The notes under the pieces were generated by a model, which saw nothing but the letters and a program-made list of their open reading frames with translations, was not told the origin of the DNA and ran no database searches. From a bacterium (GTDB lineage: Bacteria > Krumholzibacteriota > Krumholzibacteriia > LZORAL124-64-63): 64,000 nt of DNA. Positions 15,180-63,054 of this stretch are shown here, one piece after another. How positions within the stretch are numbered: position 1 is the stretch's first letter; the number at the start of each line of letters is the position of its first letter. The stretch is from positions 2,211-66,210 of the forward strand of contig JAHIYU010000072.1 in assembly GCA_018814885.1 (NCBI GenBank), given 5' to 3'. The translations under genes and the position numbers were made by a program.

Positions 15180-15412
15180 CGTTTCTCCGGGCGTAGCGGT
15201 CCGTAAATCGACCGCTGGAAACAACCTCCGCTTGTGGTGATCTCGGCAGCGGTGTTATCACTATACTGACAAACGGGCACGCTTGGCAAACCTGTTGGGG
15301 CCCCTGCCGGGCCGGTTCCCGGGGTCGCTCGACTCGGTTGCGTGTCGCGGAACCCGCTCTTTGTTACGTATCTGGTCCTGTCTTCGTTACACGACTCGGG
15401 AGGTTGCATCGC

Positions 15413-21623: not shown

Positions 21624-23096
21624 TTGAACATCCTGCTGGTGGAGCCCCGCACACCGGAAACCTTCTGGAGCCTGCGCCACGCGCTGCGCTTCGTGGGCAA
21701 GCGAGCGGCCAATCCCCCCCTCGGGCTGCTGACTGTGGCCGGTCTGCTGCCGCGCGACTGGTCGTACCGGCTCGTGGACCAGAACACCAACGACCTCGCC
21801 GACGCGGACATCCGCTGGGCCGACTACGTGCTCGTCAGCGCCATGGTGATCCATCGCGACGAGGTGAGCGAACTCGTCCGGCGCTGCCGCGCTGCCGGCA
21901 GGCCGCTGATCGGCGGCGGCCCGTTGTTCCATGCCGAGGCCGATGACGATCTGGGTGTCGAGCACGTGGTGGTGGGAGAGGCCGAGGAGTTGGCCGCCGA
22001 GCTGGCCGCCGACATGGACGGTGGCCGAGTCAAGTCGCTCTACCGGGCGCCGCGGTTCCCCGACCTCGCGCTCACGCCGCCGCCGCGGTGGGATCTGGTC
22101 GATCTGCGCCACTACGCCACTCTGTCCGTGCAGTCGTGTCGCGGCTGTCCATACGATTGCGAGTTTTGCGACGTGGTGGCGCTCAACGGCCACAAGCCGC
22201 GCCACAAGTCGGCGGTCCAATTCATCGCCGAATTGGAATGCTTGCGTACCAAGGGGTGGCGCGGACCCGTGTTCATCGTGGACGACAACTTCATCGGCGA
22301 CAAGCGGCGTTGCCGCGAACTACTGCACGCCCTTGTCGACTGGCGGACGCGCACGGGTGCACGCATGACTTTCCTTACCGAGGCCTCGGTCAACATGGCC
22401 GGCGAACCCGAGTTGCTGGAGCTCATGGTCGCCGCCGGCTTCAAGAAGGTCTTTCTGGGCCTGGAGACGCCCAGCACCGAGAGCCTGCGCGAGTGCCGAA
22501 AGCTGCAGAACCTGCGCGGCGACCTCGCCGAGAGCGTGCGGACCATCCAAGAGGCCGGCCTGGAGGTCATGAGCGGCTTCATCGTGGGCTTCGACAGCGA
22601 CGAGACGGACATCTTTCAGCGCCAGTTCGAGTTCATCCAGAACGCCGGTGTCGTTACCGCCATGGTGGGTCTGCTGCAGGCGCTGCCACGCAGCCGCCTT
22701 TATCGGCGGCTGGCCGGCGAAGGGCGGTTGCGCAGCGTCAGCCGGGGCGACAATACGAGCGCCGTCTTCAATTTCGCGCCGCGACTTGATCCCGAATTCC
22801 TGGTGGAGAATTACCGGCGTCTCATGTGCCGGCTCTACGAGCCGCGCAACTATTATCGGCGCATTCGCACTTTTCTCGCCGCGCATCGCATGCGCGGACC
22901 GCCTGAAGTGCTGACGTGGCGGGATGTAGGAGCGATCTTCAAGTCGTTCTGGATCATAGGCGTCATCCACCGCGGCCGCCGCGCCTACTGGCACTTCCTG
23001 GCTGCGACGCTCGTGCGTCACCCCGGTCAGATCGGCGTGGCCATCACGCTCGCCATCACGGGCCATCACTTTCGCCTGGTGGCTGCGGGGCTTTAG
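21624..23096 (+). CDS. B12-binding domain radical SAM protein (DUF4070-containing)
   Basis: N-terminal cobalamin-binding Rossmann-like region. CRGCPYDCEFC supplies the CxxxCxxC 4Fe-4S motif. Conserved C-terminal extension. TTG start. Confidence 0.75.
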   Translation: MNILLVEPRTPETFWSLRHALRFVGKRAANPPLGLLTVAGLLPRDWSYRLVDQNTNDLADADIRWADYVLVSAMVIHRDEVSELVRRCRAAGRPLIGGGPLFHAEADDDLGVEHVVVGEAEELAAELAADMDGGRVKSLYRAPRFPDLALTPPPRWDLVDLRHYATLSVQSCRGCPYDCEFCDVVALNGHKPRHKSAVQFIAELECLRTKGWRGPVFIVDDNFIGDKRRCRELLHALVDWRTRTGARMTFLTEASVNMAGEPELLELMVAAGFKKVFLGLETPSTESLRECRKLQNLRGDLAESVRTIQEAGLEVMSGFIVGFDSDETDIFQRQFEFIQNAGVVTAMVGLLQALPRSRLYRRLAGEGRLRSVSRGDNTSAVFNFAPRLDPEFLVENYRRLMCRLYEPRNYYRRIRTFLAAHRMRGPPEVLTWRDVGAIFKSFWIIGVIHRGRRAYWHFLAATLVRHPGQIGVAITLAITGHHFRLVAAGL

Positions 23097-38200: not shown

Positions 38201-39986
38201 AGCCGAGCAGCTCCAGGGCCCGGGGGTGGTTGCCCTTCTGGCGTTCGTCCTTGCCCATGCGCTTCAGCACGTCGGCCACGTCCCACCACTCCTCGCGGGC
38301 CTCGTGCACGGCCAGGGCCGACTGGTAGCGCTCCCGGGCGCTCGCGGCGTCCCCGAGCTGCCAGTAGATGGACCCGAGGTTGGTGTTGGCGATGGCGAGA
38401 TCGCGGTCGGCGCCCAGTTCCGTGTAGATGCGGACCGACTCCAGGCGCTCGTCAACGGCTTTCTGCAGCTCGCCCAGGTTCCAGAAGCCGTCGCTCATGT
38501 CGTCGTGGGCCGCGGCGACCGTCGCCGCCCAGTCGAGTTCCTCGGCCACGTACAGCTCGAGGGTCCAGGCGTCGATGGCCTCGCGGTAACGGCCGACCGC
38601 TTCGTAGGCGTCGCCCAGCTCGGAGAAGGTGCCGCACCGGCGCTGGATGTCCATCAGGCCGCCGCGACGGGCGAAGAGCTCGGCGGCCGCCGTCAGGGCC
38701 GCCGCCGCGGGTTCGGTCCGGCCCAGCCGGGTGAGGCACTGGCCCGCGCCGCGCCAGGATTCGGCGGCCTCCGGGTCGACGAGGGTGTCCTGCAGGGCAC
38801 CGTAGTGGTCCAGGGAGGCCTCGTAGCTGGCCAGGGCCTCCTCGTATTGCCCGTCGCTCTGCAGGACGTTGCCCAGGTTGTTGTGGGAGACGGCGCGGGA
38901 AACGGAGCCCGGCTCCGCGGCGGCGATCGCTTCCCGCCAGCAGCTTATGGACGCGCTCCATTCCTCGCGTCTCTGGTGCAGGTTCGCCTTGGCGCTCCAG
39001 TAGAGGTCCCAGAATCTTGGCACGTCGACGGCCTCGGCCAGCACGCCCATGGCGTCGATCACGGCCTCCTGTTCTTCCTCGCGCCACTCGGACTGGAAGC
39101 GCAGCGCTTCGGTGTACCACTCGTCGACGATCATCAAGTCGAGGGTGAAGTCGCGCTGCGCCGCCAGGTAGGCCAGGGCGTCCCCGCGCGCCATGTTCCG
39201 GGTCGCGTCCAGCAGTTCCAGCGACGAGGGGGGGGCCTCCGACAGGACCCAGTCGGCGAAGCTCTCCTCGACATACACGTTCCGCGCCGTGTACCAGCCG
39301 AAGTAGGAGGCCACGTACAAGAAGAAGATGCGGATGTCCTCGGGCGCGGTTTCGCCCATGACCTGTTGCGTGGTCTTGCCGGCGTAACGCCCCTGCTGGA
39401 GGGCCGCGTAGGCGTTCGGGTACTCCTCGACGGTCAGCCGCGCAGCCAGTTCCCGCACCGCGCGCGCGCAGGTGTCGAAGGTGCGCGCGTCGGGATCGTC
39501 ACCGGTGTCGGCGATCACGTCGTGATAGTCGAAGAGCACGTTCTGGTCAAGATCGTGGAACACGATGGCCTTGCGGGCTATCTGCCAGGTCAGGTAGTCC
39601 CGCTCGGGGCGGGGGCGCTCGAGACGCATCTCCACCACGTCGCCCAGGCGGATGGTGTCGCCCTCGGCGGGAAAGAGCAGGACGACGGAGACCGTGTCGG
39701 CGACGGCGGTCAGCTCCGCCTTGCCCACCACGCGGGAGCCCGTGTCGGCGGCGCCCCGGTAGACGTCGCGCAGGCCGCCGAGGACCACGCCGTGGATTTC
39801 GCCGACCTCGATCAGGCCGAACAGGCCTTGCTCGTCTGGCTCCAGGTAGGTGATGGGGATCATGATGTCGATCTCGAAGGTCGCGACATCGTCCCCGGCG
39901 ACGAGGCCGGCAGCCGGCAGGCAGGTGGCGAGGGCGACGAGCCAGGCAGCTGCACGTTTCCGGAGATCTCGTCCGCCAGCGATCAT
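35250..39986 (-). CDS. Giant TPR-repeat protein with C-terminal CHAT (caspase-HetF-associated) protease domain and N-terminal signal peptide
   Basis: Start at the Met of MIAGGRDLRKRAAAWLVALATCLPAAGLVAG; ATGA overlap with the upstream caspase gene. More than 15 TPR-like units (...NNLGNVLQSDGQYEEALASYEASL...). C-terminal CHAT blocks HLATHG, LAVLSACETAVGD, HPYYWAPFILIGNW. Confidence 0.8.
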   Translation of the reverse strand: MIAGGRDLRKRAAAWLVALATCLPAAGLVAGDDVATFEIDIMIPITYLEPDEQGLFGLIEVGEIHGVVLGGLRDVYRGAADTGSRVVGKAELTAVADTVSVVLLFPAEGDTIRLGDVVEMRLERPRPERDYLTWQIARKAIVFHDLDQNVLFDYHDVIADTGDDPDARTFDTCARAVRELAARLTVEEYPNAYAALQQGRYAGKTTQQVMGETAPEDIRIFFLYVASYFGWYTARNVYVEESFADWVLSEAPPSSLELLDATRNMARGDALAYLAAQRDFTLDLMIVDEWYTEALRFQSEWREEEQEAVIDAMGVLAEAVDVPRFWDLYWSAKANLHQRREEWSASISCWREAIAAAEPGSVSRAVSHNNLGNVLQSDGQYEEALASYEASLDHYGALQDTLVDPEAAESWRGAGQCLTRLGRTEPAAAALTAAAELFARRGGLMDIQRRCGTFSELGDAYEAVGRYREAIDAWTLELYVAEELDWAATVAAAHDDMSDGFWNLGELQKAVDERLESVRIYTELGADRDLAIANTNLGSIYWQLGDAASARERYQSALAVHEAREEWWDVADVLKRMGKDERQKGNHPRALELLGSALETFARDDWTADAAATELEIAEVYEGMGHPARSDSVYALALADYHRAGDTGGEAKVLEWWGYSLIGRKETAAARDKLETALALSEAAGNLGGQADIWRVLSNLYTGLDGDHEAGIAAAGRSLEIARSMPSKQHEAQALTMLATGLFNAGRIDDAFARMRAALDLFRETGDQAGIADSQTALGRLHAARGDYDEAVAAYSEAMAVAEAADLQGSVAGILSAMAWLQHLYGEEEIAFQTAKDAYDIYKEQDNDWALADLYNTLGSARGGQGLYEDSLGLYRLSLEIREAWGDPYGMAASHNNMGDVYRQLGDCETAVEHFREALEIGERIGYVDVMTITAGNLARCYHELGRTDEALDLIDRGLELARSVGVPPRIIDMHIFRADLLFELDELDEAATAIREGLTIAAPMGTTVATMKMGAKLGAVDWKRGRHAEAESRLREVIPQLREMRNPILLWEPLFYLGRIQRDRGEPEPAVDAFREAIDTLEQVRQGIEDEDVASGFQEKHGDVYRELVDVLMELGREEEAWEILGLMKSSEAREMGAGGPRLNDDDQALVDEAAGLRSHETRLVRLLREELARPVEQQRPELVTVWQTEIDSLKLHFHDFTRSLRRDHPQAYERLEVEPVSFNQLRRGLLVTEAFVEPVVLPDRIVVFVVRGDEDPLIYREVPVAQARVDELIREMRAGLEHPDDDWETARTARLAGMPAPPAERIDPSIPARELHALLIDPLAGDLIGVETLIVSPSGRLRYIPFAALYDGERYLLERYRLCVLTQAGTLTSRRPVPTDAALLAFGNPDSTLAGAELEVNELEEIWQPAPVTAVYGEDATKARLRDEVGTHNILHLATHGVLLNDRPEASYLVLAGEDDSARLTFRDIVLLELFDVDLAVLSACETAVGDHGEGKEIAGLAYNFEQTGAAAVIASLWMVNDESTSQLMTHLYRILHEGGTTKVEALRQAQLALRNSDDYAHPYYWAPFILIGNWR

Positions 39987-42052
39987 CGGTCCTCCTGTGC
40001 AGGTCCGTCGGTCACGATGAAGCTCACCGTGGCGGTGGCCCACTTGCCCGGCGCGACGCTCGTCGTGCTGCGTTCGCCCAGGGTAGCCGCTCGCAGCAGC
40101 TGTCCCAAGGGGGATTCGTCGTCGCGCGGCCCGGCGCTGCGGTTTCGTTCCAGGTCGCGGATGGCGTCGCGGTCCAGCAGCGGGCTGAAATCGGCGGGCT
40201 CGGCCGTGGCGATGGCCTTGAACATCTCGGCGCCGCTGGGTCCGTCGATGCGGAAGATGAACGGCGCCGGGATGCGCACCCACTGTCCGTCGGCGACGAT
40301 GCGGTTGTCCTGGACCCGCAGTCCGGGATAGGGCCACAACGGCCCGATCTCGCCCTCGCCGCGCAGGTCCAGCACCGTCACGTAGGCGTCCAGGAAGCCG
40401 GTGTTGCGCAGCTCGAGCATGACGTGGGTGCCGGCCGGTATCTCCCGGAGGCCGCCGTCGCCCGGAGGCAGGTCCAGGTCGCCGAGCACCTCCTGGGCGT
40501 AACCGGCGGCGGCGAGGCGCACTTCCACCGGCGCCAGGCGCAGCTCGATGTCCACCTGGGCGTAGGGATCGTCGTTCTCGAGGCCGCTGACGAACCGCCA
40601 GCGCGATTCGCCCTCCAGGGCGCGCGCGATCCTTGCGGACAGCTCCGGGCCCACCGGTGCGGCCGCCAGCTCCGATCCGTCCCGCCGCTCGAGGCGGATG
40701 GCGTCGCCCGTGGGGGCGTCGAGGCGCACGTCCCAGCGCTCGGCGGCGCCGGGTCCCGTGTCCAGCAGGGGCAGGTCGGAGAGGGTCTCGCGCAGGCCGT
40801 CCCAGGACGCGCTCGCGTCTAGGGCCGACAGGTCCACCTTGAGCCGATTGTCGCCGTAGCTGTGCTCGACCTCGATGGCCCGCGCGGCGCGCAGATCCTC
40901 GATCGATACGGTCGCCTCCGGCGCCAGGGCGAGCTGAGCGTAGCTGAGATCGACCCGCGAGACGACGGCCTCGGCCAGCGGCGCGGCCGAGGCGAAGTCG
41001 CGGGTGCCGGCGGGGAAGAGGGCGTAGCGCGAGTCGCGGGTGATCCCCTGCAGGGAGCCGGCCTCCAGGAAGACGCCGCCGCCGGGGTCGCCGGTGACTG
41101 GGATGTAGGCCGGCGGCGTCACGCCCGCGCCGGCGAAGAGCAGCCGGTCGAGCTCGCCTTCGACCTGGGGCGTCTGTCGCCGGTTGCGACGCAGCATGAG
41201 GTCGCCCATGCGCTCGTAGAGGTCGCGGTAGGTGGTCGCGGCGTCAGCCTCCTGCGCGGCGGCGATCAGGGCGTAGGTGAACAGGCCCATCACGTTCCCG
41301 TCGTCGTCCTCCGTCTCCGCGGCGAGCTGTCCCTGGCTGGTGGCCGATATCACGACGTAGCCCCTGGCCGCGGGGTGGCTGGCCGGGGCGATGCCGCTGC
41401 CGCCGTCCGGGACGCCATCTGTCACGGGCGGCCGCCGCGACCCGCCGTCGTCCCCGGGCCACGACTGGCCCCTGACGAGCATGCGCCCGGCGCGCGTGGC
41501 GGTGCCCGAGTAGCAGCAGTCGAAGGTCAGGGTGACGTTGCCCGGATGCTTCTCGCTCAGGTCCTCCAGCAGCCGGGCGATCTCGTCGTCGCGGATGTTG
41601 CGCGAGCCGTCCCGCTTGGACACGTAGTCCGACGGGACCAGCGACTCGTCCAGGCCGTCCAGCTCGTCGCCGTCGTCGTCGGGCACGGTGGTGCCGTGGC
41701 CGGAATAGTGGAAGTAGACGATGTCGTCCACGCCCGTCGGCGCGATCAGCCACGCGCGGAAGGCGCCGACGATCGCTTCGTGGGTGGTTTTCTCGGGCGC
41801 GGACAGGATCTTCACGTCGTCGGGGGAAAAACCGAAGCGCCGGGTGAGCATGGTGGCGATCGCCGCCACGTCGGCGCCGCTGTGCAGGTCGGCCATGTCG
41901 TCTGGCCCGCCCCGCTTGTACTGGGAGATGCCAACGAGCAGGGCGCGCTTGCCCGGCTCGGCGGCGGCGTGCGGGGGGAAGCCCCGCGCGACGGCGGCAG
42001 AGGCCGCCGTCGCGCAGGCCAGCAGGAAGATCGAGAGGCGACGCGTCTTCAT
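39983..42052 (-). CDS. Caspase-family (peptidase C14) domain protein with signal peptide and a ~400-aa C-terminal extension
   Basis: Signal peptide MKTRRLSIFLLACATAASAAVA. Catalytic dyad context YFHYSGHG (His) and FDCCYSG (Cys), as in caspases / metacaspases. Confidence 0.75.
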   Translation of the reverse strand: MKTRRLSIFLLACATAASAAVARGFPPHAAAEPGKRALLVGISQYKRGGPDDMADLHSGADVAAIATMLTRRFGFSPDDVKILSAPEKTTHEAIVGAFRAWLIAPTGVDDIVYFHYSGHGTTVPDDDGDELDGLDESLVPSDYVSKRDGSRNIRDDEIARLLEDLSEKHPGNVTLTFDCCYSGTATRAGRMLVRGQSWPGDDGGSRRPPVTDGVPDGGSGIAPASHPAARGYVVISATSQGQLAAETEDDDGNVMGLFTYALIAAAQEADAATTYRDLYERMGDLMLRRNRRQTPQVEGELDRLLFAGAGVTPPAYIPVTGDPGGGVFLEAGSLQGITRDSRYALFPAGTRDFASAAPLAEAVVSRVDLSYAQLALAPEATVSIEDLRAARAIEVEHSYGDNRLKVDLSALDASASWDGLRETLSDLPLLDTGPGAAERWDVRLDAPTGDAIRLERRDGSELAAAPVGPELSARIARALEGESRWRFVSGLENDDPYAQVDIELRLAPVEVRLAAAGYAQEVLGDLDLPPGDGGLREIPAGTHVMLELRNTGFLDAYVTVLDLRGEGEIGPLWPYPGLRVQDNRIVADGQWVRIPAPFIFRIDGPSGAEMFKAIATAEPADFSPLLDRDAIRDLERNRSAGPRDDESPLGQLLRAATLGERSTTSVAPGKWATATVSFIVTDGPAQEDR

Positions 42053-47338: not shown

Positions 47339-47537
47339 GGCCCGATGTTAACGGCAGCGCCGAGCGCGGGGAAGGCCGGAAGTCGTTGAAATCCGTGATC
47401 AAATCGGGACAAATGTACGGTATTATATATACTGGTGAAGATTGGTCATGTGCTCGCATGGTCGCCGCGGCGGCATCCCATTGGTGTGCCCGGGGAAGGC
47501 TGCGGGCTGTAAGGTGTCAATTTGCAGGAGGTTGAAA

Positions 47538-50500
47538 ATGCACCGCAGGTTCCTCACACTCGTACTCTTGAGCGCGGCTCTCGTCGTATCCGGCTCTTCT
47601 TTCGCCGGGGGCCACGAAGGTTACGCCTTCCTGGATCGTCTGGATGAAGCCCGTGAATCCGGCGCCCTCTCGGCGGACGAGGCTCTGCTCTACAAGTTCT
47701 ATTACGTGTTCGATCAGGACAAGCTGCCTGTCGACTACCGCCCGGACAGCTTTCCGCCCCTGAAGTGCGCCACGCCCCTGATCCAGGAATTCGAGCAGTC
47801 CCGCGGCTCACTGCAGGACGCCACGGTCGCCTCGGTGGAAGCCATGCTGGCGCCCAAGGGCGGCGACAAGGCCACGTACATCAGTCCGTCCGGGATCTTC
47901 CGCTTCACCTACCTGACGACCGGCGGCGACGCCGTGCCGTCGACCGACACCAATCCCGCCAACGGCATCCCGGATTTCGTGGAGTGGTGTGCCGGCTATA
48001 TGGATTATTCCTGGGATTTCGAGATCACCACGATGGGCTTCACCGCGCCCCCGCTGAGCCCCTACTACGAGATGAACTTCGAGAGCATGGGCGCCTACGG
48101 CTACACGCAAGTCGTCACCGGCACGAGAACGCGGATCACGCTCCACAACACCTTCCTGGGCTTCCCGGCCAATGACGACCCCGAGGGCAACCAGAAGGGC
48201 GCCGCCAAGGTCACCTGCGCCCACGAGTTCAAGCACGCCTCCCAGCGCGCCCAGTCCGGCTGGTCCGAGGGCGGCTGGGTCGAGCTGGATGCGACCTGGA
48301 TGGAGGACATCGCCTACGACGTGGTCAACGACTACTACAACTACCTCTGGTCGGGCTGCGGCATCACCTCCCCGCAGCTGTCCCTCGACGACGGGGGCAG
48401 CGGCTCCTACGAGGACTGCATCTGGCAGCACTGGATGAGCGAGACCTTCGGCAACCAGATCATCATCGACTTCTGGAACTGGCGTTCGTCGCATACGTCC
48501 CAGTTGGTGCTGTCCTCGTACAACGCCATCCTGGCCACGTACGGCTCCTCGCTGGCGGAGGGCTACGGTCTATTCAGCGGCTGGAACTTCCCCACCAACA
48601 TCCGTGCCCTGCCCGGGATCGGCTACGAGGAGGCCGCCGACTTCCCGAACAGCTCGGTAACCTCGCACGCCTCCTATCCCTACACCACGAACGGCACGCT
48701 GGACCACCTGGCCGCCAAGATGCTCTATCTCGGCGGGTTCCAGGCCGGCGAGCCGGGAACGCTGCACATCGCGTTCGACGGCGACGACGCCACTTCCATG
48801 CGGCTGGTCGCCGTGATCAGGAAACGGGATGGTACGGGCGTGTTCGAGCCGATTCCCCTGGACTTCTTCATGGACGCCGACGTGGAACTCAGCGTCCCCT
48901 TAGCCGAGATCTACACGGTCGGCATCGTCGCCTCCAACACAGCCCAAACGGGAACGGCCCGCCCCTGGTCGATCACCATCAGCAAGAACCTGCCCGACCC
49001 CCTGGTCGACCTGAGCAGCCCGACCCTCGACGCGGAGCTGGACATCGACGCGACCGGCATGCAGGGCCTGACCATCACCAACGTCGGCGCTGCGGGCTCG
49101 ATCCTCGCCTACGACGTCGTCCTGATGCAGGATTCGCCCGTGGCCAAGACCGCCGCTCCCCGCAGCCTGTCCGTGCCCAGCCGCGAGCAGACCCGCGCCA
49201 TGCCCGAACTGCAGCGGGGAGGCGAGCTCGCGCCCTCGCGCTACGCCGGCGACTGCGAGTTCGGCAACACCGACCTGGGCAGCGTCCAGGGCTATTACGG
49301 TACGTGGTGGTACGGCAACGAGGTCTATGCCTACCGCATCAACCCGGCGGACTACGACTGCAGCATCTGCGACGCCGGCTTCAACGTGCGGGCCATGCAC
49401 ATGGTGCTCTACCTCGAGCCGACCTCGACGCCCGGCATGGTGGCCCACCTGATGGAGGCCTCCGGCGACTGCACCACGCCCGGCGCGATCATCGACAGCT
49501 CCGCTCCGATGACCGTCTCCGGCATCGCGGCGGCGGGACTGTACATCATCGAGATCCCCTGCGATTTCGTCTGCTCCGACATGGGCGCCGAGTACTTCCT
49601 GGCCGTGGAGTTCACCGACACCAACGGCCCGGTGGGCATCGCCATCGACACCACGCCGCAGAGCTGCGTCTGCTACAACGACTGGGGTTCCGGCTGGGTG
49701 GACGTCGTGTCCCAGTACAGCTTCGCCGGCGACTTCTTCATCTATGCCGACGTGGACTGCTGCGGCGAACCCGACCCCGAGGTCACGGTGATCCAGCCCA
49801 ACGGCGGCGAGTTCGTGGCCGTGGGCGCGTCGCTCGACATGAGCTGGACCGCCACGCTCCTGACCGACGTCAAGATCGACCTGAGCCGCAACAACGGCGG
49901 CGTCTGGGAGACGGTGCTGGCCACGACGCCCAACGACGGCGCCCAGTCCGACATCGCCACCGGACCCACCTCGAACCAGTGCCTGCTCCGCGTCAGCAGC
50001 CTCGACGACCTGTACACCGACGTCAGCGACGCGGTCTTCACCATCTACGACACGGTCCCCTGGCTGTCCGTGGACATCGACAACGGCGACCTGGGCCTGG
50101 GCGAGAACGACCTGCTGACCTTCACCTTCGACGCGACGGGACTGGCCGAAGGCGTCTACACCGGCTACGCGGTGTTCTTCAGCAACGCCGCGTCCTCGCC
50201 GGACGTGGTCACCGCCACCCTGACCGTCAACGACCCGGGCACCGCCGTGGGCGACTCGCCCCACGTCTTCGCCCTGAAGGGCAACTATCCCAACCCGTTC
50301 AACCCGTCCACCAAGGTGAGCTTCGCCATCCCGGAGGCCGGGCAGGTCACCATCGACGTGCTCGACCTGCAGGGCCGCGTCGTGCGTACGCTGCATTCCG
50401 GACACCTCGACGCCGGCTTCGCCAGTGTGGTCTGGGACGGTACCGACGTCGACGGCCGCCAGATGGCGTCCGGCACCTACATGGCGCGCCTGAGCGCCGC

Positions 50501-50540
50501 CGGCCGCACGGCCACCCACAAGATGACCCTGGCCAAGTAG
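47538..50540 (+). CDS. Secreted ~1000-aa putative zinc metalloprotease (HExxH) with C-terminal FlgD-Ig-like / T9SS-type sorting domain
   Basis: AGGAGG RBS before ATG 47538. Signal peptide MHRRFLTLVLLSAALVVSGSSFAGG. CAHEFKHASQ supplies HExxH. Tail LKGNYPNPFNPSTKVSFAIP...YMARLSAAGRTATHKMTLAK. Confidence 0.6.
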   Translation: MHRRFLTLVLLSAALVVSGSSFAGGHEGYAFLDRLDEARESGALSADEALLYKFYYVFDQDKLPVDYRPDSFPPLKCATPLIQEFEQSRGSLQDATVASVEAMLAPKGGDKATYISPSGIFRFTYLTTGGDAVPSTDTNPANGIPDFVEWCAGYMDYSWDFEITTMGFTAPPLSPYYEMNFESMGAYGYTQVVTGTRTRITLHNTFLGFPANDDPEGNQKGAAKVTCAHEFKHASQRAQSGWSEGGWVELDATWMEDIAYDVVNDYYNYLWSGCGITSPQLSLDDGGSGSYEDCIWQHWMSETFGNQIIIDFWNWRSSHTSQLVLSSYNAILATYGSSLAEGYGLFSGWNFPTNIRALPGIGYEEAADFPNSSVTSHASYPYTTNGTLDHLAAKMLYLGGFQAGEPGTLHIAFDGDDATSMRLVAVIRKRDGTGVFEPIPLDFFMDADVELSVPLAEIYTVGIVASNTAQTGTARPWSITISKNLPDPLVDLSSPTLDAELDIDATGMQGLTITNVGAAGSILAYDVVLMQDSPVAKTAAPRSLSVPSREQTRAMPELQRGGELAPSRYAGDCEFGNTDLGSVQGYYGTWWYGNEVYAYRINPADYDCSICDAGFNVRAMHMVLYLEPTSTPGMVAHLMEASGDCTTPGAIIDSSAPMTVSGIAAAGLYIIEIPCDFVCSDMGAEYFLAVEFTDTNGPVGIAIDTTPQSCVCYNDWGSGWVDVVSQYSFAGDFFIYADVDCCGEPDPEVTVIQPNGGEFVAVGASLDMSWTATLLTDVKIDLSRNNGGVWETVLATTPNDGAQSDIATGPTSNQCLLRVSSLDDLYTDVSDAVFTIYDTVPWLSVDIDNGDLGLGENDLLTFTFDATGLAEGVYTGYAVFFSNAASSPDVVTATLTVNDPGTAVGDSPHVFALKGNYPNPFNPSTKVSFAIPEAGQVTIDVLDLQGRVVRTLHSGHLDAGFASVVWDGTDVDGRQMASGTYMARLSAAGRTATHKMTLAK

Positions 50541-54221: not shown

Positions 54222-55319
54222 ATGCGTACGATCATCTCGATCGGTCTTATGGTTTTCTTGCTCCCGGTTTTCACGGCGAGTGCCCTGCTGGCGACTACCA
54301 TCGTCGTTGATCATGCTGGCAGCGGCGACTACACGACCATCGGTGAGGCGGTGACAGCCGCTCCCTCCGGTGCGGAGATCGTCATCATGCCAGGCACATA
54401 TCCGGAGTTCGTGATCGTCGCGAAGTCGCTGACGTTCACAGCCAATGGCCTACCGGGCTCTGTCATCTGGGATGGTGAGAACAGCCACCGCATCCTCAAG
54501 GTGCGCACGCCGATCGCGGTCTCGTTCACTGGTATCGAATTCCGTGATGGCTTCGACCCGATCGAGGATGGATGCGGAGTCGCCATTCACATCGACACCG
54601 GAGCGGTTGTGACGATCGACCAGTGCCGTTTCATCAATAATCACGCGAGCTGGGATGGCGCCGTGTTTGCGGGCCTGAGTGGTACATCGGTCACGATCAC
54701 CAACAGCCACTTCGAGGATAATTATGCCTATCATAATTGCCCCGCGGCCGGCGTGCTTCTCGATGCGGAAATGGTGATCGACAACTGCACATTCATCGAC
54801 AATATCTGTTCAAACATCTCGGGAGCCGTCGCATCATGGCAAGCCGATCTCTCGGTTCAGCATTGTCTATTCGCGGGGAATACGGGTGGAACTGCGGGTG
54901 CAATCCTCGTGAGTGGTGGCGGTGGGGATATCTACAACAACACATTTCACGACAACCACGGCGGTAATGTCGTCCTCATCTCGACCTCCTCTCCTTATTC
55001 GTACCATCACAATATCATGACCATCAACACCTCGGGTGGGGGACTTTACATGTCCAGCGGTATAACCCACGGCTGCAACCTGTTCTATGAAATCGCTGGA
55101 GACGAGGTGTCCGGAGGCCTGGCACCCGACGAGATCGTCGCCGATCCGTTGTATTGCGATTATACCGTCGGGGATTTCAACCTGTGCTACATGTCTCCGG
55201 CCCTGCCGGAGAACAACGGTTGTGGCATGATGGGGGCGTTCTCCATGGGATGTACGACATGTGGGCCTATCGCCAACGAAGATAGGGCCTGGGGTGACGT
55301 CAAGAAGATGTACGACTGA
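54222..55319 (+). CDS. Secreted right-handed beta-helix repeat protein carrying the conserved C-terminal WGxVKxLY tag (paralog of 10573..11601)
   Basis: Signal peptide MRTIISIGLMVFLLPVFTASA. Beta-helix rungs (CRFINN, SHFEDN, CTFIDN, CLFAGN, NTFHDN). C-terminus ...NEDRAWGDVKKMYD-stop. AT-rich promoter-like leader 54136..54221. Confidence 0.6.
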   Translation: MRTIISIGLMVFLLPVFTASALLATTIVVDHAGSGDYTTIGEAVTAAPSGAEIVIMPGTYPEFVIVAKSLTFTANGLPGSVIWDGENSHRILKVRTPIAVSFTGIEFRDGFDPIEDGCGVAIHIDTGAVVTIDQCRFINNHASWDGAVFAGLSGTSVTITNSHFEDNYAYHNCPAAGVLLDAEMVIDNCTFIDNICSNISGAVASWQADLSVQHCLFAGNTGGTAGAILVSGGGGDIYNNTFHDNHGGNVVLISTSSPYSYHHNIMTINTSGGGLYMSSGITHGCNLFYEIAGDEVSGGLAPDEIVADPLYCDYTVGDFNLCYMSPALPENNGCGMMGAFSMGCTTCGPIANEDRAWGDVKKMYD

Positions 55320-56981: not shown

Positions 56982-59246
56982 ATGGTCATCGAGACGACAC
57001 GCGAGATGGTGCAGCAGGTTTACGAGAAGTCCCGCGCACGGCTGGCGGTCGTCCGCGCCAGGCTGGGCCGGCCGCTGACCCTGGCCGAGAAGATCCTCTT
57101 CGGCCACCTGGACGATCCGGCCGGTCAGGAGCTGGCCCGCGGCGAGGCCACGCTGGCCCTGCGTCCCGATCGCGTCGCCATGCAGGACGCCACCGCGCAG
57201 ATGGCCATCCTGCAGTTCATGCAGGCCGGGCGCGACGAGACCGCCGTGCCGACCACCGTCCACTGCGACCATCTGCTGCTGGCCCACAAGGGCGCCGCGT
57301 ACGACAAGGCCCACGCCCTGGACGCGAACAGGGAGGTCTACGACTTCCTGAGCTCCGCGGCCGACCGCTACGGCATGGGCTTCTGGAAGCCCGGCAGCGG
57401 CATCATCCACCAGATCGTCCTGGAGAATTACGCGCTGCCCGGCGGCCTGATCATCGGTACCGACAGCCACACGCCCAACGGCGGCGGCCTGGGCATGGTG
57501 GCCTGCGGCGTGGGCGGCGCCGACGCCGTCGACGTGATGGTGGGCATGCCCTGGGAGGTCAAGCACCCGAAGCTGATCGGCGTCAAGCTGACCGGGGCGC
57601 CGAGCGGCTGGACCGCCCCCAAGGACGTCATCCTCAAGCTCTGCGGCATCCTCACGGTCAAGGGCGGCACCAACGCCATCGTGGAGTACTTCGGCGACGG
57701 CTGCGCCGCGCTGAGCTGCACCGGCAAGGCGACGATCACCAACATGGGCGCCGAGCTGGGCGCGACGACCAGCGTCTTCCCCTACGACGAGCGCATGGCG
57801 ACCTATCTGCGGGCCACCCGGCGCGCCGACCTGGCGGATCTGGCCGACGCCAACACTGACCTGCTGACCGCCGACCCCGAGGTCGCCGTGGACCCCGGGA
57901 CGTTCTACGACCGGATCGTCGAGATCGACCTGACGACCCTCGAGCCGCACCTGGTCGGCCCCCACTCGCCCGACATCGCCCATCCCGTGGGGCGCATGGC
58001 CGCCGACACGGAGCGCGAGGGCTATCCCGAGAAGCTGACGGCCGCGCTGATCGGCAGCTGCACCAACTCGTCCTACGAGGACATCTGCCGCACCGCCGAC
58101 GTGGCCCGGCAGGCCCTCGACAAGGGTCTGAGGATGAGGACCAGCCTGTGGGTCTCGCCGGGCAGCGACCAGATCTACGAGACGATCAAGCGCGACGGCC
58201 AGCTCGCAGTCCTGGAGGAGGTGGGCGCCACGGTGCTGACCAACGCCTGCGGCCCCTGCATCGGCCAGTGGAAGCGCGACGACATCGCCGAGGGCGAGGC
58301 CAACAGCATCGTCACCTCCTTCAACCGCAACTTCGCCAAGCGCAACGACGGCAATCCCCGGACCCACGCCTTCATCGGCAGCCCGGAGGTGGTCATGGCC
58401 TACGGCCTGGCCGGCACCCTGAAGTTCAATCCGTTGAGCGATACCCTGGTCAACGCAGAGGGCGAACGGGTGAGGCTCGATCCGCCCGCGGTCGCCGACG
58501 AGTTGCCGCCCGACGGCTTCGTCGTCGCGACCGGCGGCTACCAGGCGCCGGGCGCCGGCGCCGGGGGGGAGGTCGTGGTCGATCCCGGCAGCGAGCGCCT
58601 GGCCCTGCTGGAGCCGTTCTCGCGGTGGCACGGCGGCGACTACGAGGAGCTGCCCCTGCTGATCAAGGCCCTGGGCAAGTGCACCACCGACCACATCTCC
58701 ATGGCCGGCCCGTGGCTGAAGTACCGCGGCCACCTGGACAACATCAGCGACAACATGCTCATCGGCGCGGTCAACGCCTTCACCGGGCAGACCAACAGCG
58801 TCAAGAATCTGGTGACGGGCGAATACGGCGCCGTGCCGGCCACCGCGCGCGACTACAAGGCCCGCGGCCTGCGCTGGGTAGTGGTCGGCGACGAGAACTA
58901 CGGGGAGGGATCGTCCCGCGAGCACGCGGCCATGGAGCCGCGGCACCTGGGCTGCGCCGCGGTGCTCGTGCGCAGCTTCGCCCGCATCCACGAGACGAAC
59001 CTGAAGAAGCAGGGCGTCCTGCCGCTGACCTTCGCCGACCCCGCCGACTACGACAAGGTCCGCGAAGACGACCGTGTCTCGATCCGCGGCCTGGCCTCGC
59101 TCGCGCCGGGCGAGCCGTTGCAGGTGGAGTTGAAGCACGCCGACGGGACGGCGGATGCTTTCGCCGTGAACCACACGTTCACGGCGGAGCAGATCGGGTG
59201 GTTCGCGGCGGGCTCGGCCCTGAACAGGATCAAGGCGGGCGTCTAG
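56982..59246 (+). CDS. Aconitate hydratase (754 aa, mitochondrial-type / short aconitase)
   Basis: Fe-S ligand contexts, including [32 protein letters not shown] and the CGPCIGQW / SCTNSSYED cysteine motifs. SREHAA near the C-terminal swivel domain. Confidence 0.85.
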
Positions 59247-59321
59247 CCGGATCGATCATCGGCAACAAGCAGCCCCGCCGCTCGGCGAGCGGCGGGGCTG
59301 TTCCGTGCGGCGCGGTCCGGC

Positions 59322-59936
59322 TTACTTGTACAGGCTCTTCACGCCGCCCCAGTTCGCGTTTTCGCCGACCACGGGATTCTGGTTGGGGAACCAGATCCCG
59401 GCGTGGTCCGGGGCGGTGACGATGACGTCGTCGCACCAGTAGCCGTCCTCGACGGCAACGCTGTACATGCGGAACTCCACCATCAGGCCCAGGTGATTAG
59501 GGTCCGTGCCGTCGAAAGTCCACGTCCAGGTCAGCTGCTCCCAGCCGGTCCCGGCCGAGTAGGTCCCGCTGCCGCCTGCCGACCCCGTGTAGTTCAAGTG
59601 GTCGTTGTCGGTGTAGTGGCCCCAGATCCGGGAACTCGGCGACACGCCCGCGGAGGTGTCGTACGTCCAGAAGCTGGCCGTGACCACGTCGCCGTTCTGC
59701 AGGTCCGAGATCCAGGCGACGTACATCTGGGGCGTGCCGCCGAGGGGATCCTCGTAACCGAAGAGGGCGCTTGCGCCGGTGTGGACGACATCGGTCACGT
59801 TCGCCCCCCCGCCGACGTTGCCGTCGGTGCCGAAGACCGTCGAGTACCCGTCTTCCCATCCGAAGGAGCGGGTGTGCTGGGCCACCGCGCCGGTGGCCAT
59901 CGCGGCGATCAGCGCCGCGATCGTCAATAACTTCAT
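59322..59936 (-). CDS. Small secreted protein, tandem paralog A, with the C-terminal WGxVKxLY tag
   Basis: GGAGGA RBS before ATG 59936. Signal peptide MKLLTIAALIAAMATGAVA. Conserved YGWEDG and LGGTPQ.Y.AWI blocks shared with the neighbour. C-terminus ...ENANWGGVKSLYK-stop. Confidence 0.6.
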   Translation of the reverse strand: MKLLTIAALIAAMATGAVAQHTRSFGWEDGYSTVFGTDGNVGGGANVTDVVHTGASALFGYEDPLGGTPQMYVAWISDLQNGDVVTASFWTYDTSAGVSPSSRIWGHYTDNDHLNYTGSAGGSGTYSAGTGWEQLTWTWTFDGTDPNHLGLMVEFRMYSVAVEDGYWCDDVIVTAPDHAGIWFPNQNPVVGENANWGGVKSLYK

Positions 59937-60103
59937 GCCATCTATCCTCCTCGCCTCGCACTTTGGAAGCCGGTTGATCACGTCCCTATTATTTTGACAT
60001 ATAATCATGGATTTGGCAAGTTCTCGTCTGGCTTGGCGGGCAAGTGGAAGCCCCGCCGCTTTAGGAGCGACGGGGCCTTCGTGATACCAGCGAAACTTTC
60101 CGC

Positions 60104-60748
60104 TTACCTGAACAGGTTCTTCACAGCGCCCCAGGAGGAGTCCTCGTTGCCGACGGGCTCGCGGTCGGGGAAGTAGATCGTCGCATTATCGGGAGCGGTG
60201 ATGGTGATGTCATCCACCCAGGTATCGGTGTCGCCGGGCGGCGTGACACCGGTGCCGCTGTAGATGCGGAACTCGATCACCAGCGCGGTCGCGTCGGGGT
60301 CGGGAGTGCCGGAGACGCCGTAGGTCCAGCTGTCGGCGATGTTCTCCCAGCCGATGCCGGTCGTGTAGGGGCCGAGGCCGCTGGCCGTGCCGGCATAGTC
60401 GTTGATGTCATTGGTGCTGTAGTGGCCCCACAGGCGGAAGCGGGGGTAGTAGTCGGGGTCTGGCGTGTCGTCGAAGACCCAGCAGTCCACATTGACCACG
60501 TCGTTGAGCTGCAGGCCCGTGATCCAGGCCAGATAGACCTGGGGCGTGCCGCCCAGGGGCTCTTCCCACGTGTACAGGGACCGGTCGCCGCTGTGGGAGA
60601 AGTCCCCCACGTTCACGGTACCACCCACGTTGCCGTAGATGCCATGAGCTGTGCCGACACCGTCTTCCCAGCCGTAGCTGAGAGTCTGATCCGCCATCGC
60701 GCCGGTGGCCGCCACGGTGAGAACCAGCATAATTGTCAATAGCCTCAT
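60104..60748 (-). CDS. Small secreted protein, tandem paralog B, with the C-terminal WGxVKxLY tag
   Basis: GAGGAGGA RBS about 9 nt before ATG 60748. Signal peptide MRLLTIMLVLTVAATGAMA. C-terminus ...NEDSSWGAVKNLFR-stop. Preceded by a roughly 340-bp AT-rich leader / promoter region. Confidence 0.6.
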   Translation of the reverse strand: MRLLTIMLVLTVAATGAMADQTLSYGWEDGVGTAHGIYGNVGGTVNVGDFSHSGDRSLYTWEEPLGGTPQVYLAWITGLQLNDVVNVDCWVFDDTPDPDYYPRFRLWGHYSTNDINDYAGTASGLGPYTTGIGWENIADSWTYGVSGTPDPDATALVIEFRIYSGTGVTPPGDTDTWVDDITITAPDNATIYFPDREPVGNEDSSWGAVKNLFR

Positions 60749-61203
60749 GTTTCTCATCCTCCTCATTGCTCGAGTGGACTCGGGTGTAAGTGGGAGCTCC
60801 TCGGTGTCTCGCCACCTGTTGTGTTGCTTCTGAATGCACAGAAGCGGCAGCCGCACGCGACGGCCACCAGGACCAGAAACGAAGTCTCTTGTTCAGAATC
60901 CCGTAGATCACTCACGATTACAAACTTATATCCAGGATTCTTCAAGAGGACCTAAGTGTATCACGAAATACTACATTATTCAACATTCTAACTCCCGAAA
61001 ACGAAAATTTAATATATAAGCCGTGCTGATCGATCCGTCGCAGCGCAAAATCACCTGGGGGAGCCGCACGCCGCATAAAGCACCAGGAAAATCAACCGAT
61101 TGCAACAGGATGGAATGAGTTGATGCGCCTGCGGCCGCGTCGTGACACTATGGGACGCGGCGACATATCGCCGCGATCGCTCACCGCTGGAGGGGACGGA
61201 GCG

Positions 61204-61743
61204 ATGCCGGTCTTAAGATCGATCATCCTGGTTGCCCTGCTGGCCGTGCTGGCCGGCTGCGCCGGCGGGCGTCCGTCGCGCGATCGGGCTCCGGTGGTCC
61301 ATGACGACGTTCCCGCCACTCCGGGGGCTTTGCCTCGCGCCGCCGGCTGGTTCGGCGATTCCGCCGATGACGTCTCGGGGAAAGCCGCCCGCTGCCACAT
61401 GCTGCGCACCGCCCTGGCCGACACCACCCATTCCTGGCTGTGGCTCGAACTGGACCTGTCCGGGGACGCGTCGGTGCGGGTCTCCGGTCCTGGCGCGCTG
61501 GTCTTCGTCCTCGCGACCGGCGATGTCGTCCGCGAGGTCCGGGACGCCGGGTTGTTCGTCGCCCTCAGCCTCGACGCGAACACCTTCCTCAACTCCACGA
61601 GCGGGCCCATCACCATCCGGTCCGGCCACGCGACCGCCGGCTCCGGCTGCGTGAGGCTTCTCGCCAGGTTGCCGGCGGTAGACACCAGGCGGACCGTGGT
61701 CGATCATGTGAGTCCGGTACCGGGGCGCTGGATCCAGAAATAA
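61204..61743 (+). CDS. Hypothetical lipoprotein
   Basis: Lipobox LLAVLAGC after MPVLRSIILVA. The antisense ORF 61092..61685 has no such features. Confidence 0.5.
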   Translation: MPVLRSIILVALLAVLAGCAGGRPSRDRAPVVHDDVPATPGALPRAAGWFGDSADDVSGKAARCHMLRTALADTTHSWLWLELDLSGDASVRVSGPGALVFVLATGDVVREVRDAGLFVALSLDANTFLNSTSGPITIRSGHATAGSGCVRLLARLPAVDTRRTVVDHVSPVPGRWIQK

Positions 61744-61755
61744 TAGGGGAACGCC

Positions 61756-63054
61756 ATGGCGTTGAACTGGGAAGACATCCGCTATCGCGGCGATATCCGC
61801 GATGTCCAGGAACTCTACGACAGCTACCGTATCGAGGATTACCTCGAGGCCTTCGAGGCGAACCGCCACCACCAGGACGAGGGGGTGCGCGAGAACCTGC
61901 TGAAGCACGGCATCCGCCTGACCGGGCAGCTCTCGCCCCGCATCTTCCGCCTGCACGCCGAAACCGCGGCGGCGCTCGAGGTAGCGGGCGACGCCGAGAT
62001 CTTCTGCCTGCCCGACAGCGACATGAACGCCTTCGCCGTGCTCGACATCCGCGAGGACAGGACACATTCGCTGATCGGCATCACCGCCGGCGCCCTCGAA
62101 CATCTGGAGGACGCGGAGATCAAGTTCATCCTGGGCCACGAGATGGGCCACTTCCTCTGCGGCCACAACCGCCTCAACGCGGTCTTCTCCACGGACGAGC
62201 GGAACCCCAAGGCCACCGTGCTGCCGCCCTTCGGCGAGAGCCTGTTCCTGCGCTGGCGCAAGAAGGCCGAGGTGAGCGCGGACCGGGCGGGCCTGCTGGT
62301 GTGCCGCGACTTCCACGCCGCCGCGCGCGCGCTGCTGAAGATCACCTTCGGCCTGACCGAGAAGAACCTCAACCTGGAGATCGACGCCCTGGTCGCCCAG
62401 ATCGACGAGATCAGCGGCTCGACGGAGATGATCGAGGAGGCCTTCGCCTCGCATCCGCTGCTGCCGGTGCGCCTGAAGGCCCTCGAGCTTTTCGCGGGCA
62501 GCGAGCGGGCCAAGCGCAACGGCTGCGACGTCCTGCCGGGCACGCTCGCCGACGACGCGCTCGAGGACGGCGTGGACCGCCTGGTCGTCCTCAGCCGACG
62601 CTACCCGACCAAGCCCCTCGACGTGGCCATGATGCACGTCCTGGCCATGGCCGGCGTGCTGGTCCTGGGCGCCGACGCCGACGTGAGCGACGAGGAGGTC
62701 AAGCTGCTGGTGCAGCAGCTGCACACCGTGTTCACCGACGAGCCCGAGGATGTCATCGTCACCGACCGCGAGGAGATCGCGCGCCGCCTGCCCGAGGCGT
62801 GCCGGGTGATCGTCGAGCAGGGGGACGACGACGCCAAGCAGTTCCTGCTGTCGCGGATCGCGGAGATCGCCCTGGCCGACGGGGCGCTCATGGACAGCGA
62901 GGCCGAGCAGATCCACGAGGTGGCCAAGATGCTCGAGGTGCCCGAGAAGGTGACCTACGCCGTCATCGTCGGCGCGGCGCAGTCGGTGGGTTTCCGGGCC
63001 GACGCCAAGCTCAACCGCATCGCCGCGCAGCTGCGGCGGTCGCTGTCCCCGTGA
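61756..63054 (+). CDS. M48-family zinc metallopeptidase fused to a C-terminal TerB-like domain
   Basis: HEXXH as ILGHEMGHFLCGH. C-terminal ~140 aa with a TerB-like acidic helical pattern (DEEVKLLVQQL...AKQFLLSRIAEIALADGALMDSEAEQI). Confidence 0.65.
   Translation: MALNWEDIRYRGDIRDVQELYDSYRIEDYLEAFEANRHHQDEGVRENLLKHGIRLTGQLSPRIFRLHAETAAALEVAGDAEIFCLPDSDMNAFAVLDIREDRTHSLIGITAGALEHLEDAEIKFILGHEMGHFLCGHNRLNAVFSTDERNPKATVLPPFGESLFLRWRKKAEVSADRAGLLVCRDFHAAARALLKITFGLTEKNLNLEIDALVAQIDEISGSTEMIEEAFASHPLLPVRLKALELFAGSERAKRNGCDVLPGTLADDALEDGVDRLVVLSRRYPTKPLDVAMMHVLAMAGVLVLGADADVSDEEVKLLVQQLHTVFTDEPEDVIVTDREEIARRLPEACRVIVEQGDDDAKQFLLSRIAEIALADGALMDSEAEQIHEVAKMLEVPEKVTYAVIVGAAQSVGFRADAKLNRIAAQLRRSLSP

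Follow-up and report, generated by a model that had tools for sequence, protein, structure and literature searches.

Two neighbouring genes on the minus strand of a 64,000-nucleotide stretch of bacterial DNA (GenBank assembly GCA_018814885.1, contig JAHIYU010000072.1; the whole stretch is called the window below), here gene A and gene B, encode small secreted proteins that share one domain, for which we coined the name YGWEDG domain, and one C-terminal tag. Our reading, to which we assign a probability of about 0.58, is that A and B are old paralogues of a rare ligand-binding module that is displayed at the cell surface and that bears a lineage-specific, short C-terminal sorting or anchoring tag. 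The original prediction had described the pair as diversifying secreted or surface proteins; the paralogy and the export of the proteins hold, and the diversification is not supported.

The gene pair and the YGWEDG domain

The products of the two neighbours share 98 of 214 identical residues (46%; BLASTP, E 5e-65), and the product of gene A is identical to NCBI MBU1073598.1. Each gene is preceded by the strong ribosome-binding site (RBS) that had been predicted for it, GAGGAGGA, located 8-9 nt 5' of the ATG in both cases, and each product starts with a signal peptide. For gene B the originally proposed open reading frame (ORF) was retained but is one codon shorter, as its start codon is the ATG at 59936 and not at 59939, in agreement with public gene calls. 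The features of the pair are as follows; gene coordinates include the stop codon.

60104..60748, minus strand: gene A, A-type paralogue, secreted YGWEDG-domain protein of 214 aa (ORF and translation)
59322..59936, minus strand: gene B, B-type paralogue, secreted YGWEDG-domain protein of 204 aa (ORF and translation, public gene calls)
60692..60748, minus strand: predicted signal peptide of A, residues 1-19, MRLLTIMLVLTVAATGAMA before DQ (AMA/DQ), read from the sequence, with a helix at residues 2-14 in the AlphaFold2 (AF2) model and cleavage predicted by the AxA rule
59880..59936, minus strand: predicted signal peptide of B, residues 1-19, MKLLTIAALIAAMATGAVA before QH (AVA/QH), read from the sequence, with a helix at residues 2-16 in the model
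60757..60764, minus strand: RBS of A, GAGGAGGA (sequence)
59945..59952, minus strand: RBS of B, GAGGAGGA (sequence)

A third paralogue was not found within the window by tblastn, and the other weak matches of this search were only the C-terminal tails of two unrelated genes. Neither A nor B matched a Pfam or NCBIfam model at E up to 10. A word-indexed search of 5.8 billion proteins returned 43 relatives, and an exhaustive hidden Markov model (HMM) search of 1.84 billion representatives matched 334 clusters, 279 of them at E up to 1e-10, so that the family must be regarded as rare. A ubiquitous housekeeping family, which the original prediction had named as the finding that would speak against it, was thus not encountered. 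In addition, a genome collection was scanned with a profile built from 14 closer family sequences, and 40 genome loci were compared. The blocks previously singled out in A and B, YGWEDG, GGTPQ.Y.AWI and WGHY, proved to be conserved columns of the whole family alignment. Across phyla, 12 columns are invariant (W27, L58, T68, P69, R105, W107, G120, Y128, W134, R161, Y163 and D179), and 23 more are nearly so.

The AF2 models of both proteins are confident over the domain (predicted template-modelling score 0.82) and display a beta-sandwich of 11-12 strands. The predicted local distance difference test score (pLDDT) was 87.3 for gene A, an all-beta sandwich over residues 20-192, and 89.0 for gene B. 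A Foldseek search against the PDB placed the carbohydrate-binding module (CBM) 22 of Xyn10C first for both models, at E 6.5e-7 for A and 9.6e-8 for B and with a probability of 1.00. The target-normalised TM-score (Foldseek) was 0.62-0.65, and the modelled beta-jelly-roll can be superposed on solved CBM22 structures. Further matches comprised CBM16, CBM27, CBM4, CBM15, an alginate-binding CBM and Eph ligand-binding domains, and for gene B also the K1/K3 adhesin domains of the gingipain Kgp. The same CBM22 was the only match below E 0.01 when the family HMM was searched against PDB sequences (E 0.0087, 18.6 bits), while the CBM22/CBM_4_9 profile PF02018 did not match A or B in Pfam hmmscan at E up to 10. 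Judged by its modelled fold, the YGWEDG domain is a new CBM22-like beta-jelly-roll module of the CBM22 or galactose-binding-like kind.

Many relatives are multidomain proteins with up to five YGWEDG copies. Nine multidomain members were examined: eight contain a Lamin-Tail domain (LTD), together with PKD, EEP nuclease or DUF5689 domains, in seven the YGWEDG domain comes first, immediately behind the signal peptide at the N-terminus, and the last module is, in four, a Por_Secre_tail, the tail of the T9SS (type IX secretion system), or a dockerin. Judged by fold and architecture only, the domain most likely represents a distal ligand-binding head, and its ligand is most likely a glycan. That the domain is instead a small enzyme, such as a jelly-roll polysaccharide lyase or hydrolase, appears improbable to us. 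The conserved residues E28, D29, Q70, R105, W107, H109, Y128, R161, Y163, D179 and D180 could make an active site, and jelly-roll cyclases (HpiC1, Stig cyclases) are among the fold matches; however, the closest matches by fold and by sequence profile are CBMs and adhesin domains without catalytic function, and the domain is found in up to five tandem copies and also at the N-terminal tip of surface proteins with several domains, as one typically sees for binding modules.

In a neighbour-joining (NJ) tree, A and B fall into separate clades, each with orthologues of its own: the A-type clade contains the window's A, P0002 and P0003, and the B-type clade the window's B, P0011, P0012, P0010 and the proteins of loci L005-L007 and L009. 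The identity of 46% between A and B therefore reflects an old duplication. Sixty alignment columns carry the same residue throughout both clades, and at 16 each clade has a fixed residue of its own. The B orthologues gave a ratio of nonsynonymous to synonymous rates (dN/dS, NG86 method) of 0.26-0.42, and the comparison of A with its orthologue at locus L049 gave 0.34, as compared to 0.15-0.42, mostly 0.15-0.31, for the housekeeping neighbours (aconitase, M48, PALP, Rho) and 0.40-0.53 for the adjacent lipoprotein gene; because the codon bias probably causes dS to be underestimated, these ratios should be compared with one another and not read as absolute values. The dN of B orthologues is about twice that of the housekeeping neighbours. 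Both genes thus evolve faster than housekeeping genes in dN, yet they are under purifying selection, and gene-wide positive selection was ruled out with an omega below 0.45 for orthologue pairs. The content of guanine and cytosine (GC) at third codon positions (GC3) is 0.87 in A and 0.93 in B, values usual for the window that mark both genes as native and rule out a recent horizontal acquisition.

The original prediction of a recently duplicated secreted pair under diversifying, i.e., positive, selection, e.g., variable surface antigens, could draw on the identity of 46% between neighbours, on the doubled dN of B orthologues and on the slot upstream of B, the content of which differs among close relatives. 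It is opposed by the distinct clades with orthologues in each, by the gene-wide dN/dS of 0.26-0.42, by the 12 invariant and 23 nearly invariant columns across phyla and by the native composition of both genes. At the level of the gene this explanation is already largely refuted, and we regard it as highly improbable; the pattern fits two old, stable subtypes and not a recent diversifying duplicate.

The C-terminal tag

A and B share a C-terminal tag, as originally noted and as borne out by BLASTP and motif scan. Its consensus is [ST]-W-G-x-[VI]-K-x-[LM]-[YF]-[RK]-COOH, or P-[VI]-x-N-E-x-x-[ST]-W-G-x-[VI]-K-x-[LM]-[YF]-[RK]-COOH in the extended form. In the family alignment the region reads ..EPVGNEDSSWGAVKNLFR in A and ..NPVVGENANWGGVKSLYK in B, and about 22 residues remain beyond the last domain strand in both models. 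Four ORFs of the window bear the tag, in every one with the motif one residue from the stop:

60107..60157 (core 60107..60133), minus strand: tag of A, PVGNEDSS-WGAVKNLFR (motif scan; low-confidence helix at residues 207-212)
59325..59375 (core 59325..59351), minus strand: tag of B, PVVGENAN-WGGVKSLYK (motif scan; predicted helix at residues 194-202, pLDDT ~55)
54222..55319, plus strand: tagged secreted right-handed beta-helix protein, unrelated to A and B, tail ..CGPIANEDRAWGDVKKMYD (motif scan; PF13229; orthologues keep the tail)
10573..11604, minus strand: tagged beta-helix/PMP-repeat protein, unrelated to A and B, tail ..DERSAWGDVKRLYR, start codon uncertain (motif scan, Pfam)

The tail of the two beta-helix proteins (PF13229; one with Chlamydia PMP repeats) has the form W-G-x-V-K-x-[LM]-Y-[DR]. 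In the related loci scanned, the tag was always located 0-1 residue from the stop. Metagenome contigs were then searched for DNA that encodes W-G-x-V-K-x-L-[YF]-R, irrespective of whether a stop follows, and the matches listed comprised 83 occurrences at 80 loci. Among these, the stop follows directly in 72/83, after one residue in 7/83 and after four residues in 1/83, and three look unrelated. Hence, 79 of the 83 occurrences listed lie within one residue of the stop, at the extreme C-terminus; by chance about 5% would be expected directly before a stop. Positions that the scan left unspecified are also conserved: 62 of 66 tails have T/S at -10, 44 of 66 have a Cys at -20..-18, and T/V at -16, P/A at -15 and E/R/Q at -13 are conserved as well. 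An origin of the tail at the DNA level, as a repeat or terminator element, was ruled out, as the x positions vary freely and the flanking residues are conserved as protein.

Tagged proteins are small (median ~250 aa), and signal-peptide-like N-termini were found by a crude rule in 43 of 52 complete ORFs. When the tag was removed, the 84 tagged ORFs of all loci formed 31 clusters unrelated to one another, with beta-helix, LTD and YGWEDG proteins among them, and the tag-bearing YGWEDG members are monophyletic in the NJ tree. The tag recurs in the sampled high-GC soil, sediment and groundwater contigs of uncultured bacteria of the Fibrobacteres-Chlorobi-Bacteroidetes (FCB) group, and a protein search with a soil tagged family returned a single taxon name, Candidatus Eisenbacteria. 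Tandem arrays of tagged genes recur: at L170:10001-16807 (GCA_038231135.1), five of eight small tandem genes encode tagged Cys-rich paralogues (..TWGQVKSLYR), all within one 7-kb array, which is followed by two rotamase genes and then by a gene for a C25 peptidase of 1382 aa that matches FlgD_ig weakly and may be PorU-like. On low-GC Aegiribacteria-like contigs, at L022:8364-8954 and in P0026, P0029 and P0037 (Candidatus Aegiribacteria), the tail occurs in a variant that lacks the last basic residue (..SWGAIKTSF, ..TWAEIKAAF, ..TWADIKASF; W-x-x-I-K-x-x-F), and the signal may extend beyond Eisenbacteria-like lineages.

Among the 40 genome loci, the C-terminus that follows the YGWEDG domain differs with the lineage:

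PEP-CTERM: Zoogloeaceae, Pseudomonadales, Phycisphaerae and a Chlamydiae metagenome-assembled genome (MAG)
long T9SS-type ends (..KMILIK): Cloacimonadota
dockerin-like repeats: some Phycisphaerales
W-G-x-V-K-x-L-F-R-stop: MAGs labelled Candidatus Eisenbacteria or 'uncultured Fibrobacteraceae'

The same was observed for the beta-helix family, the homologues of which end in the tag, in a FlgD_ig T9SS domain (which P0056 carries instead of the tag) or in dockerin-like repeats. The tag is hence interchangeable with known sorting signals in both families. The earlier designation of A and B as secreted or surface proteins is backed by the signal peptides, by the tag at the position where homologues have PEP-CTERM, T9SS or dockerin modules, and by the adhesin/CBM-like fold; we infer that both proteins would reside at the surface.

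The tag does not correspond to signals described so far. No Pfam or NCBIfam match was obtained for whole tagged proteins, ten isolated tails gave only noise, and a literature search turned up no account of the tail. The signals of the sortase, exosortase, rhombosortase and myxosortase types consist of a motif, a transmembrane helix and an Arg cluster (Haft preprint). The tag has a signature motif, about four hydrophobic residues and one terminal basic residue; with no transmembrane segment and this single basic residue it stands outside the tripartite design, and it does not match LPXTG, GlyGly-CTERM, MYXO-CTERM, PGF-CTERM and other signals of this kind. Nor is it a PEP-CTERM: A ends in ..SSWGAVKNLFR and B in ..ANWGGVKSLYK, with no PF07589 match, while the homologues P0022, P0025 and P0028 do carry PEP-CTERM. 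By the usual bioinformatic yardsticks, the tag qualifies as a modular C-terminal sorting or anchoring signal of a design absent from curated libraries. A farther-reaching proposal, which we put forward only tentatively, is that the tail ([ST]-W-G-x-[VI]-K-x-[LM]-[YF]-[RK]-COOH, with T/V-P-x-E/N upstream and a frequent Cys) belongs to an unrecognised post-Sec sorting or surface-anchoring system of Eisenbacteria-like and related FCB-group bacteria that does without a transmembrane segment or a T9SS Ig-like domain. It might have a dedicated receptor or enzyme that recognises an amphipathic helix at the terminus, and it might serve about a hundred small binding proteins per genome, a number extrapolated from the two further tagged genes in the ~62 kb of the window, often encoded in tandem arrays of fast turnover.

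The lineage also encodes cargo with the long C-terminal domain (CTD) of the T9SS. Three such proteins are encoded in the window and one, of 653 aa, at L045; full CTDs and the short tail are therefore both in use in the lineage.

15..1376, plus strand: FlgD_ig protein with T9SS-type CTD (Pfam match)
47442..50540, plus strand: FlgD_ig protein with T9SS-type CTD (Pfam match)
12333..15224, minus strand: S8 peptidase with CarboxypepD_reg, the end of which (..RRVTLMK) resembles a CTD end, with no FlgD_ig or Por_Secre_tail match (sequence)

In a further locus, L047:10817-19386, a YGWEDG gene precedes a cluster that encodes a T9SS-CTD-like 656-aa protein, a TonB-dependent-type outer-membrane protein (CarboxypepD_reg, Plug and OMP_b-brl_3) and an NHL-repeat protein, with an FGE-sulfatase gene upstream.

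The tail could be a miniature T9SS signal that imitates motif E, the final strand of a type A CTD, and by which the lineage's own T9SS would carry the proteins across the outer membrane, possibly with cleavage of the PorU kind upstream of the W. For a type A CTD, both its last 13 residues and the conserved motif-E lysines are reported to be essential, and PorU cleaves between T/E/D/N and G/A/S (review PMC10202324). As these elements matter in type A CTDs, the T9SS stays a plausible route. The CTD cargo in the window and in relatives, the L170 array near a C25 peptidase with FlgD_ig and the homologous domains that bear either tag or CTD at one position are consistent with such a route, as are the invariant K at -5, the basic residue at -1 and the N-E-D-S or E-N-A-N just before the core. 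However, the tag comprises ~10-20 residues against the ~70-80 of a seven-strand Ig-like domain, motifs A-D are all missing, the invariant W-G has no counterpart in motif E, and no PF18962, PF13860 or TIGR04183 signal was found in whole tagged proteins or their tails. Full CTDs and tag also occur on different proteins of one genome, and this coexistence marks them as distinct classes. Taken together, we consider delivery by the T9SS unlikely.

A second alternative, to which we give still less weight, is that the tail, instead of being a sorting signal, is a terminal peptide for docking or anchoring, either an in-plane amphipathic helix on the periplasmic membrane leaflet, as in the penicillin-binding protein PBP5, or a plug into a scaffold in the manner of cohesin and dockerin. 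On a helical wheel of the consensus, W1, V4, L7 and Y8 come together on one face with K5 and R9 alongside, a helix is drawn over the tag in both AF2 models, and planctomycete homologues have dockerin-like repeats at the tag position. Nine residues are, however, few for an anchor that is to hold stably in a membrane, in 94 loci no recurrent scaffold gene was seen in the neighbourhood, and the near-absolute distance of 0-1 residue to the carboxyl end suggests recognition of the terminus and not simple partitioning into the membrane.

The variable slot and its regulatory elements

Six syntenic relatives (L045, L005, L006, L007, L009 and L049) have a B orthologue at the syntenic position, within a shared order of genes for Rho, an M48/TerB peptidase, the lipoprotein, the slot, the B orthologue, aconitase and a PALP enzyme. 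The flanking DNA is 81-88% identical, and the slot between the lipoprotein gene and B (60084..61384 in the window) holds a differing tagged small secreted protein across relatives:

window: gene A
L049: an A orthologue and another tagged protein of 219 aa
L045, L006 and L007: an unrelated tagged protein of 247 aa ('ILASDDF' family)
L009: a tagged LTD protein
L005: nothing

At L009, the stand-alone tagged LTD gene adjoins the B orthologue, which mirrors the YGWEDG-LTD fusion. Homology between the genomes at the DNA level restarts within the last ~10, tag-coding codons (window 60135/60156). Tag end, terminator and next promoter therefore act as a fixed junction, and the locus illustrates gene turnover, with this junction beside a slot whose occupant changes among close genomes. 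The sole YGWEDG gene of L005 (L005:7620-8698) is chimeric, with promoter, hairpin of the 5' untranslated region (5'UTR) and signal peptide of the A type and a mature part of the B type. This suggests that an ancestral A-B pair has collapsed by recombination.

The AT-rich stretch that had been noted before gene A exists, with GC down to 0.36-0.49 around 60900-61060, but it is not a simple leader: it is an intergenic region between divergent genes. A matching GC dip (0.34-0.39) was present in all five syntenic relatives profiled (L045, L005, L006, L007 and L009), regardless of the gene that follows. The elements of the region and of the A-B spacer are:

60749..61203, no strand: divergent AT-rich intergenic region of 455 bp between gene A and the lipoprotein gene (GC profile)
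61204..61743, plus strand: divergent neighbour, 179-aa lipoprotein with LAGC lipobox, conserved flank of the variable slot (ORF, public gene calls)
60955..60983, minus strand: promoter-like element of A, TTGAAT, 17 nt, TACACT, with TGA just before TACACT, sigma-70-like (conservation)
60826..60845, minus strand: palindrome or hairpin GCTTCTG-N6-CAGAAGC in the putative 5'UTR of A (comparison across loci)
60050..60076, minus strand: terminator-like GC-rich hairpin after A, GCCCCGTCGC...GCGGCGGGGC (conservation)
59991..60019, minus strand: promoter-like element of B, TTGCCA, 17 nt, CAAAAT, with TG upstream (TGT) (consensus scan)
59262..59298, minus strand: intrinsic terminator after B (terminator scan and sequence)

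The lipoprotein of 61204..61743 matched no significant Pfam family. The element TTGAAT-17 nt-(TGA)TACACT is kept 5' of A-type genes in four loci, i.e., the window, L005, L049 and the non-syntenic L050, and was missed by a stricter consensus scan; as a predicted promoter of gene A it would imply a 5'UTR of ~200 nt. Transcription is predicted to start near 60948 for A and near 59984 for B. The palindrome GCTTCTG-N6-CAGAAGC lies 83-97 nt before the start codon in A-type genes; the window, L005 and L050 share its stem but differ in its loop, and L049 lacks it. Its role could be that of an RNA hairpin or of an operator. Furthermore, a conserved TCCAC box lies ~20 nt 5' of the RBS of A-type genes. 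A search of 59000..62000 against Rfam at E up to 1 gave no match, and therefore no known riboswitch or leader RNA. The hairpin at 60050..60076 is kept in six of six relatives, 3' of whichever gene fills the slot, and CTTGC and TG(T/G)CAAAAT of the promoter-like element of B are invariant in six relatives. The conserved hairpin after A together with the conserved promoter-like element before B marks A and B as separate transcription units and not as an operon.

Elsewhere in the window, 35250..40337 (minus strand) encodes a very large TPR-repeat protein of at least 1695 aa with a C-terminal CHAT (caspase-like) domain, 6269..8659 (plus strand) a lipoprotein in which LVIVD repeats are joined to an FGE-sulfatase domain, and 21624..23096 (plus strand) a B12-binding radical SAM protein with DUF4070.

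Proposed mechanism and comparison with known systems

In the mechanism we propose, A would be transcribed alone from the promoter in the AT-rich divergent region and B from a promoter in the A-B spacer. Each product would be exported by Sec and then cleaved by signal peptidase I, and the tag would direct the protein to the cell envelope or surface or hold it there. The tag itself most likely forms an amphipathic helix of 2.5 turns, with W, V, L and Y/F on one face flanked by K and R, and a receptor or processing enzyme would read the position of this helix next to the free carboxyl end. At the surface, A and B probably bind polymeric ligands, most likely glycans, with different specificities. 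The analysis shows the paralogy, the export signals, the fold, how the family is distributed, the exchange of anchors and a tag that is modular and strictly terminal; residence at the surface, the helix, the class of ligand and a dedicated machinery are inferred.

Several observations weigh against this reading. The organism is uncultured, the localisation and processing of the tagged proteins are putative, and the taxon labels of the relatives conflict ('Candidatus Eisenbacteria' versus 'uncultured Fibrobacteraceae'). The AF2 helix over the tag was drawn at a pLDDT of ~55 in A and B; as the tail was modelled at such low confidence, the helix is weakly supported. With respect to a cognate receptor or enzyme, the 581 ORFs around tagged genes were clustered across 94 loci, and no non-tagged family recurs except for syntenic housekeeping genes. 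As T9SS-type CTD proteins are encoded in the same genome, the known T9SS, and not a new system, could be what the tag feeds into. The glycan role leans on fold similarity at 6-19% identity and a TM-score of only 0.4-0.65, and there is no glycoside hydrolase among the nine multidomain members examined.

The short C-terminal sorting signals LPXTG, PEP-CTERM, GlyGly-CTERM, MYXO-CTERM and T9SS CTD have in every case opened the way to a dedicated machinery and to the surface proteome of an entire lineage. Used as a marker, the tag would similarly flag the envelope or surface proteome of soil-abundant, unstudied bacteria, and its recognition would offer a handle on the machinery through phylogenetic profiling. 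The YGWEDG domain, in turn, would define a new CBM-like family that is tied to bacterial Lamin-Tail-domain proteins.

Among known sorting systems, PEP-CTERM/exosortase (PF07589, TIGR02595) occupies the position of the A/B tail in homologues and is, like the tag, a short C-terminal module on many unrelated secreted proteins; A and B, however, have neither the PEP motif nor the transmembrane helix and Arg cluster. The T9SS type A CTD (PF18962/TIGR04183, FlgD_ig-like PF13860) is an alternative C-terminal module on homologous domains and occurs in the same genome, and a C-terminal K...[KR] is important in both. It is, however, a seven-strand Ig-like domain of 70-80 residues with motifs A-E, whereas the tag has only 10-20 residues and no HMM match. 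In E. coli PBP5/PBP6, a Sec-exported soluble domain is followed by a terminal amphipathic helix with no transmembrane segment. Export and a terminal helix of this kind are also what we propose for A and B, but the PBP5 anchor is about twice as long as the tag and is not known to share a conserved motif with unrelated proteins or to need an exact distance to the terminus. The 'choice-of-anchor' families of NCBIfam (D. Haft) combine a conserved extracytoplasmic domain with lineage-dependent C-terminal anchors. The YGWEDG family follows the same concept, with the difference that it has no NCBIfam model and that one of its anchors is itself undescribed.

With respect to the domain, the adhesin (haemagglutinin) domains K1-K3 of the Porphyromonas gingivalis Lys-gingipain (PDB 4itc, 3m1h, 3km5) belong to the same fold class, are surface-displayed in an FCB-group bacterium and are among the top matches of gene B; they differ in being parts of a large T9SS-secreted polyprotein and have no detectable sequence relationship to A and B. 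CBM22/CBM4-9, represented by the CBM22 of Paenibacillus barcinonensis Xyn10C (PDB 4xup, 4xuo, 4xun), is likewise a beta-jelly-roll of ~160-180 residues and a repeated module inside larger proteins. In contrast, the YGWEDG domain has no PF02018 match (14-19% identity), it is fused to LTD, PKD, EEP or DUF5689 domains and not to glycoside hydrolases, the usual partners of CBM22, and in A and B it stands alone, with a signal peptide and the C-terminal tag.

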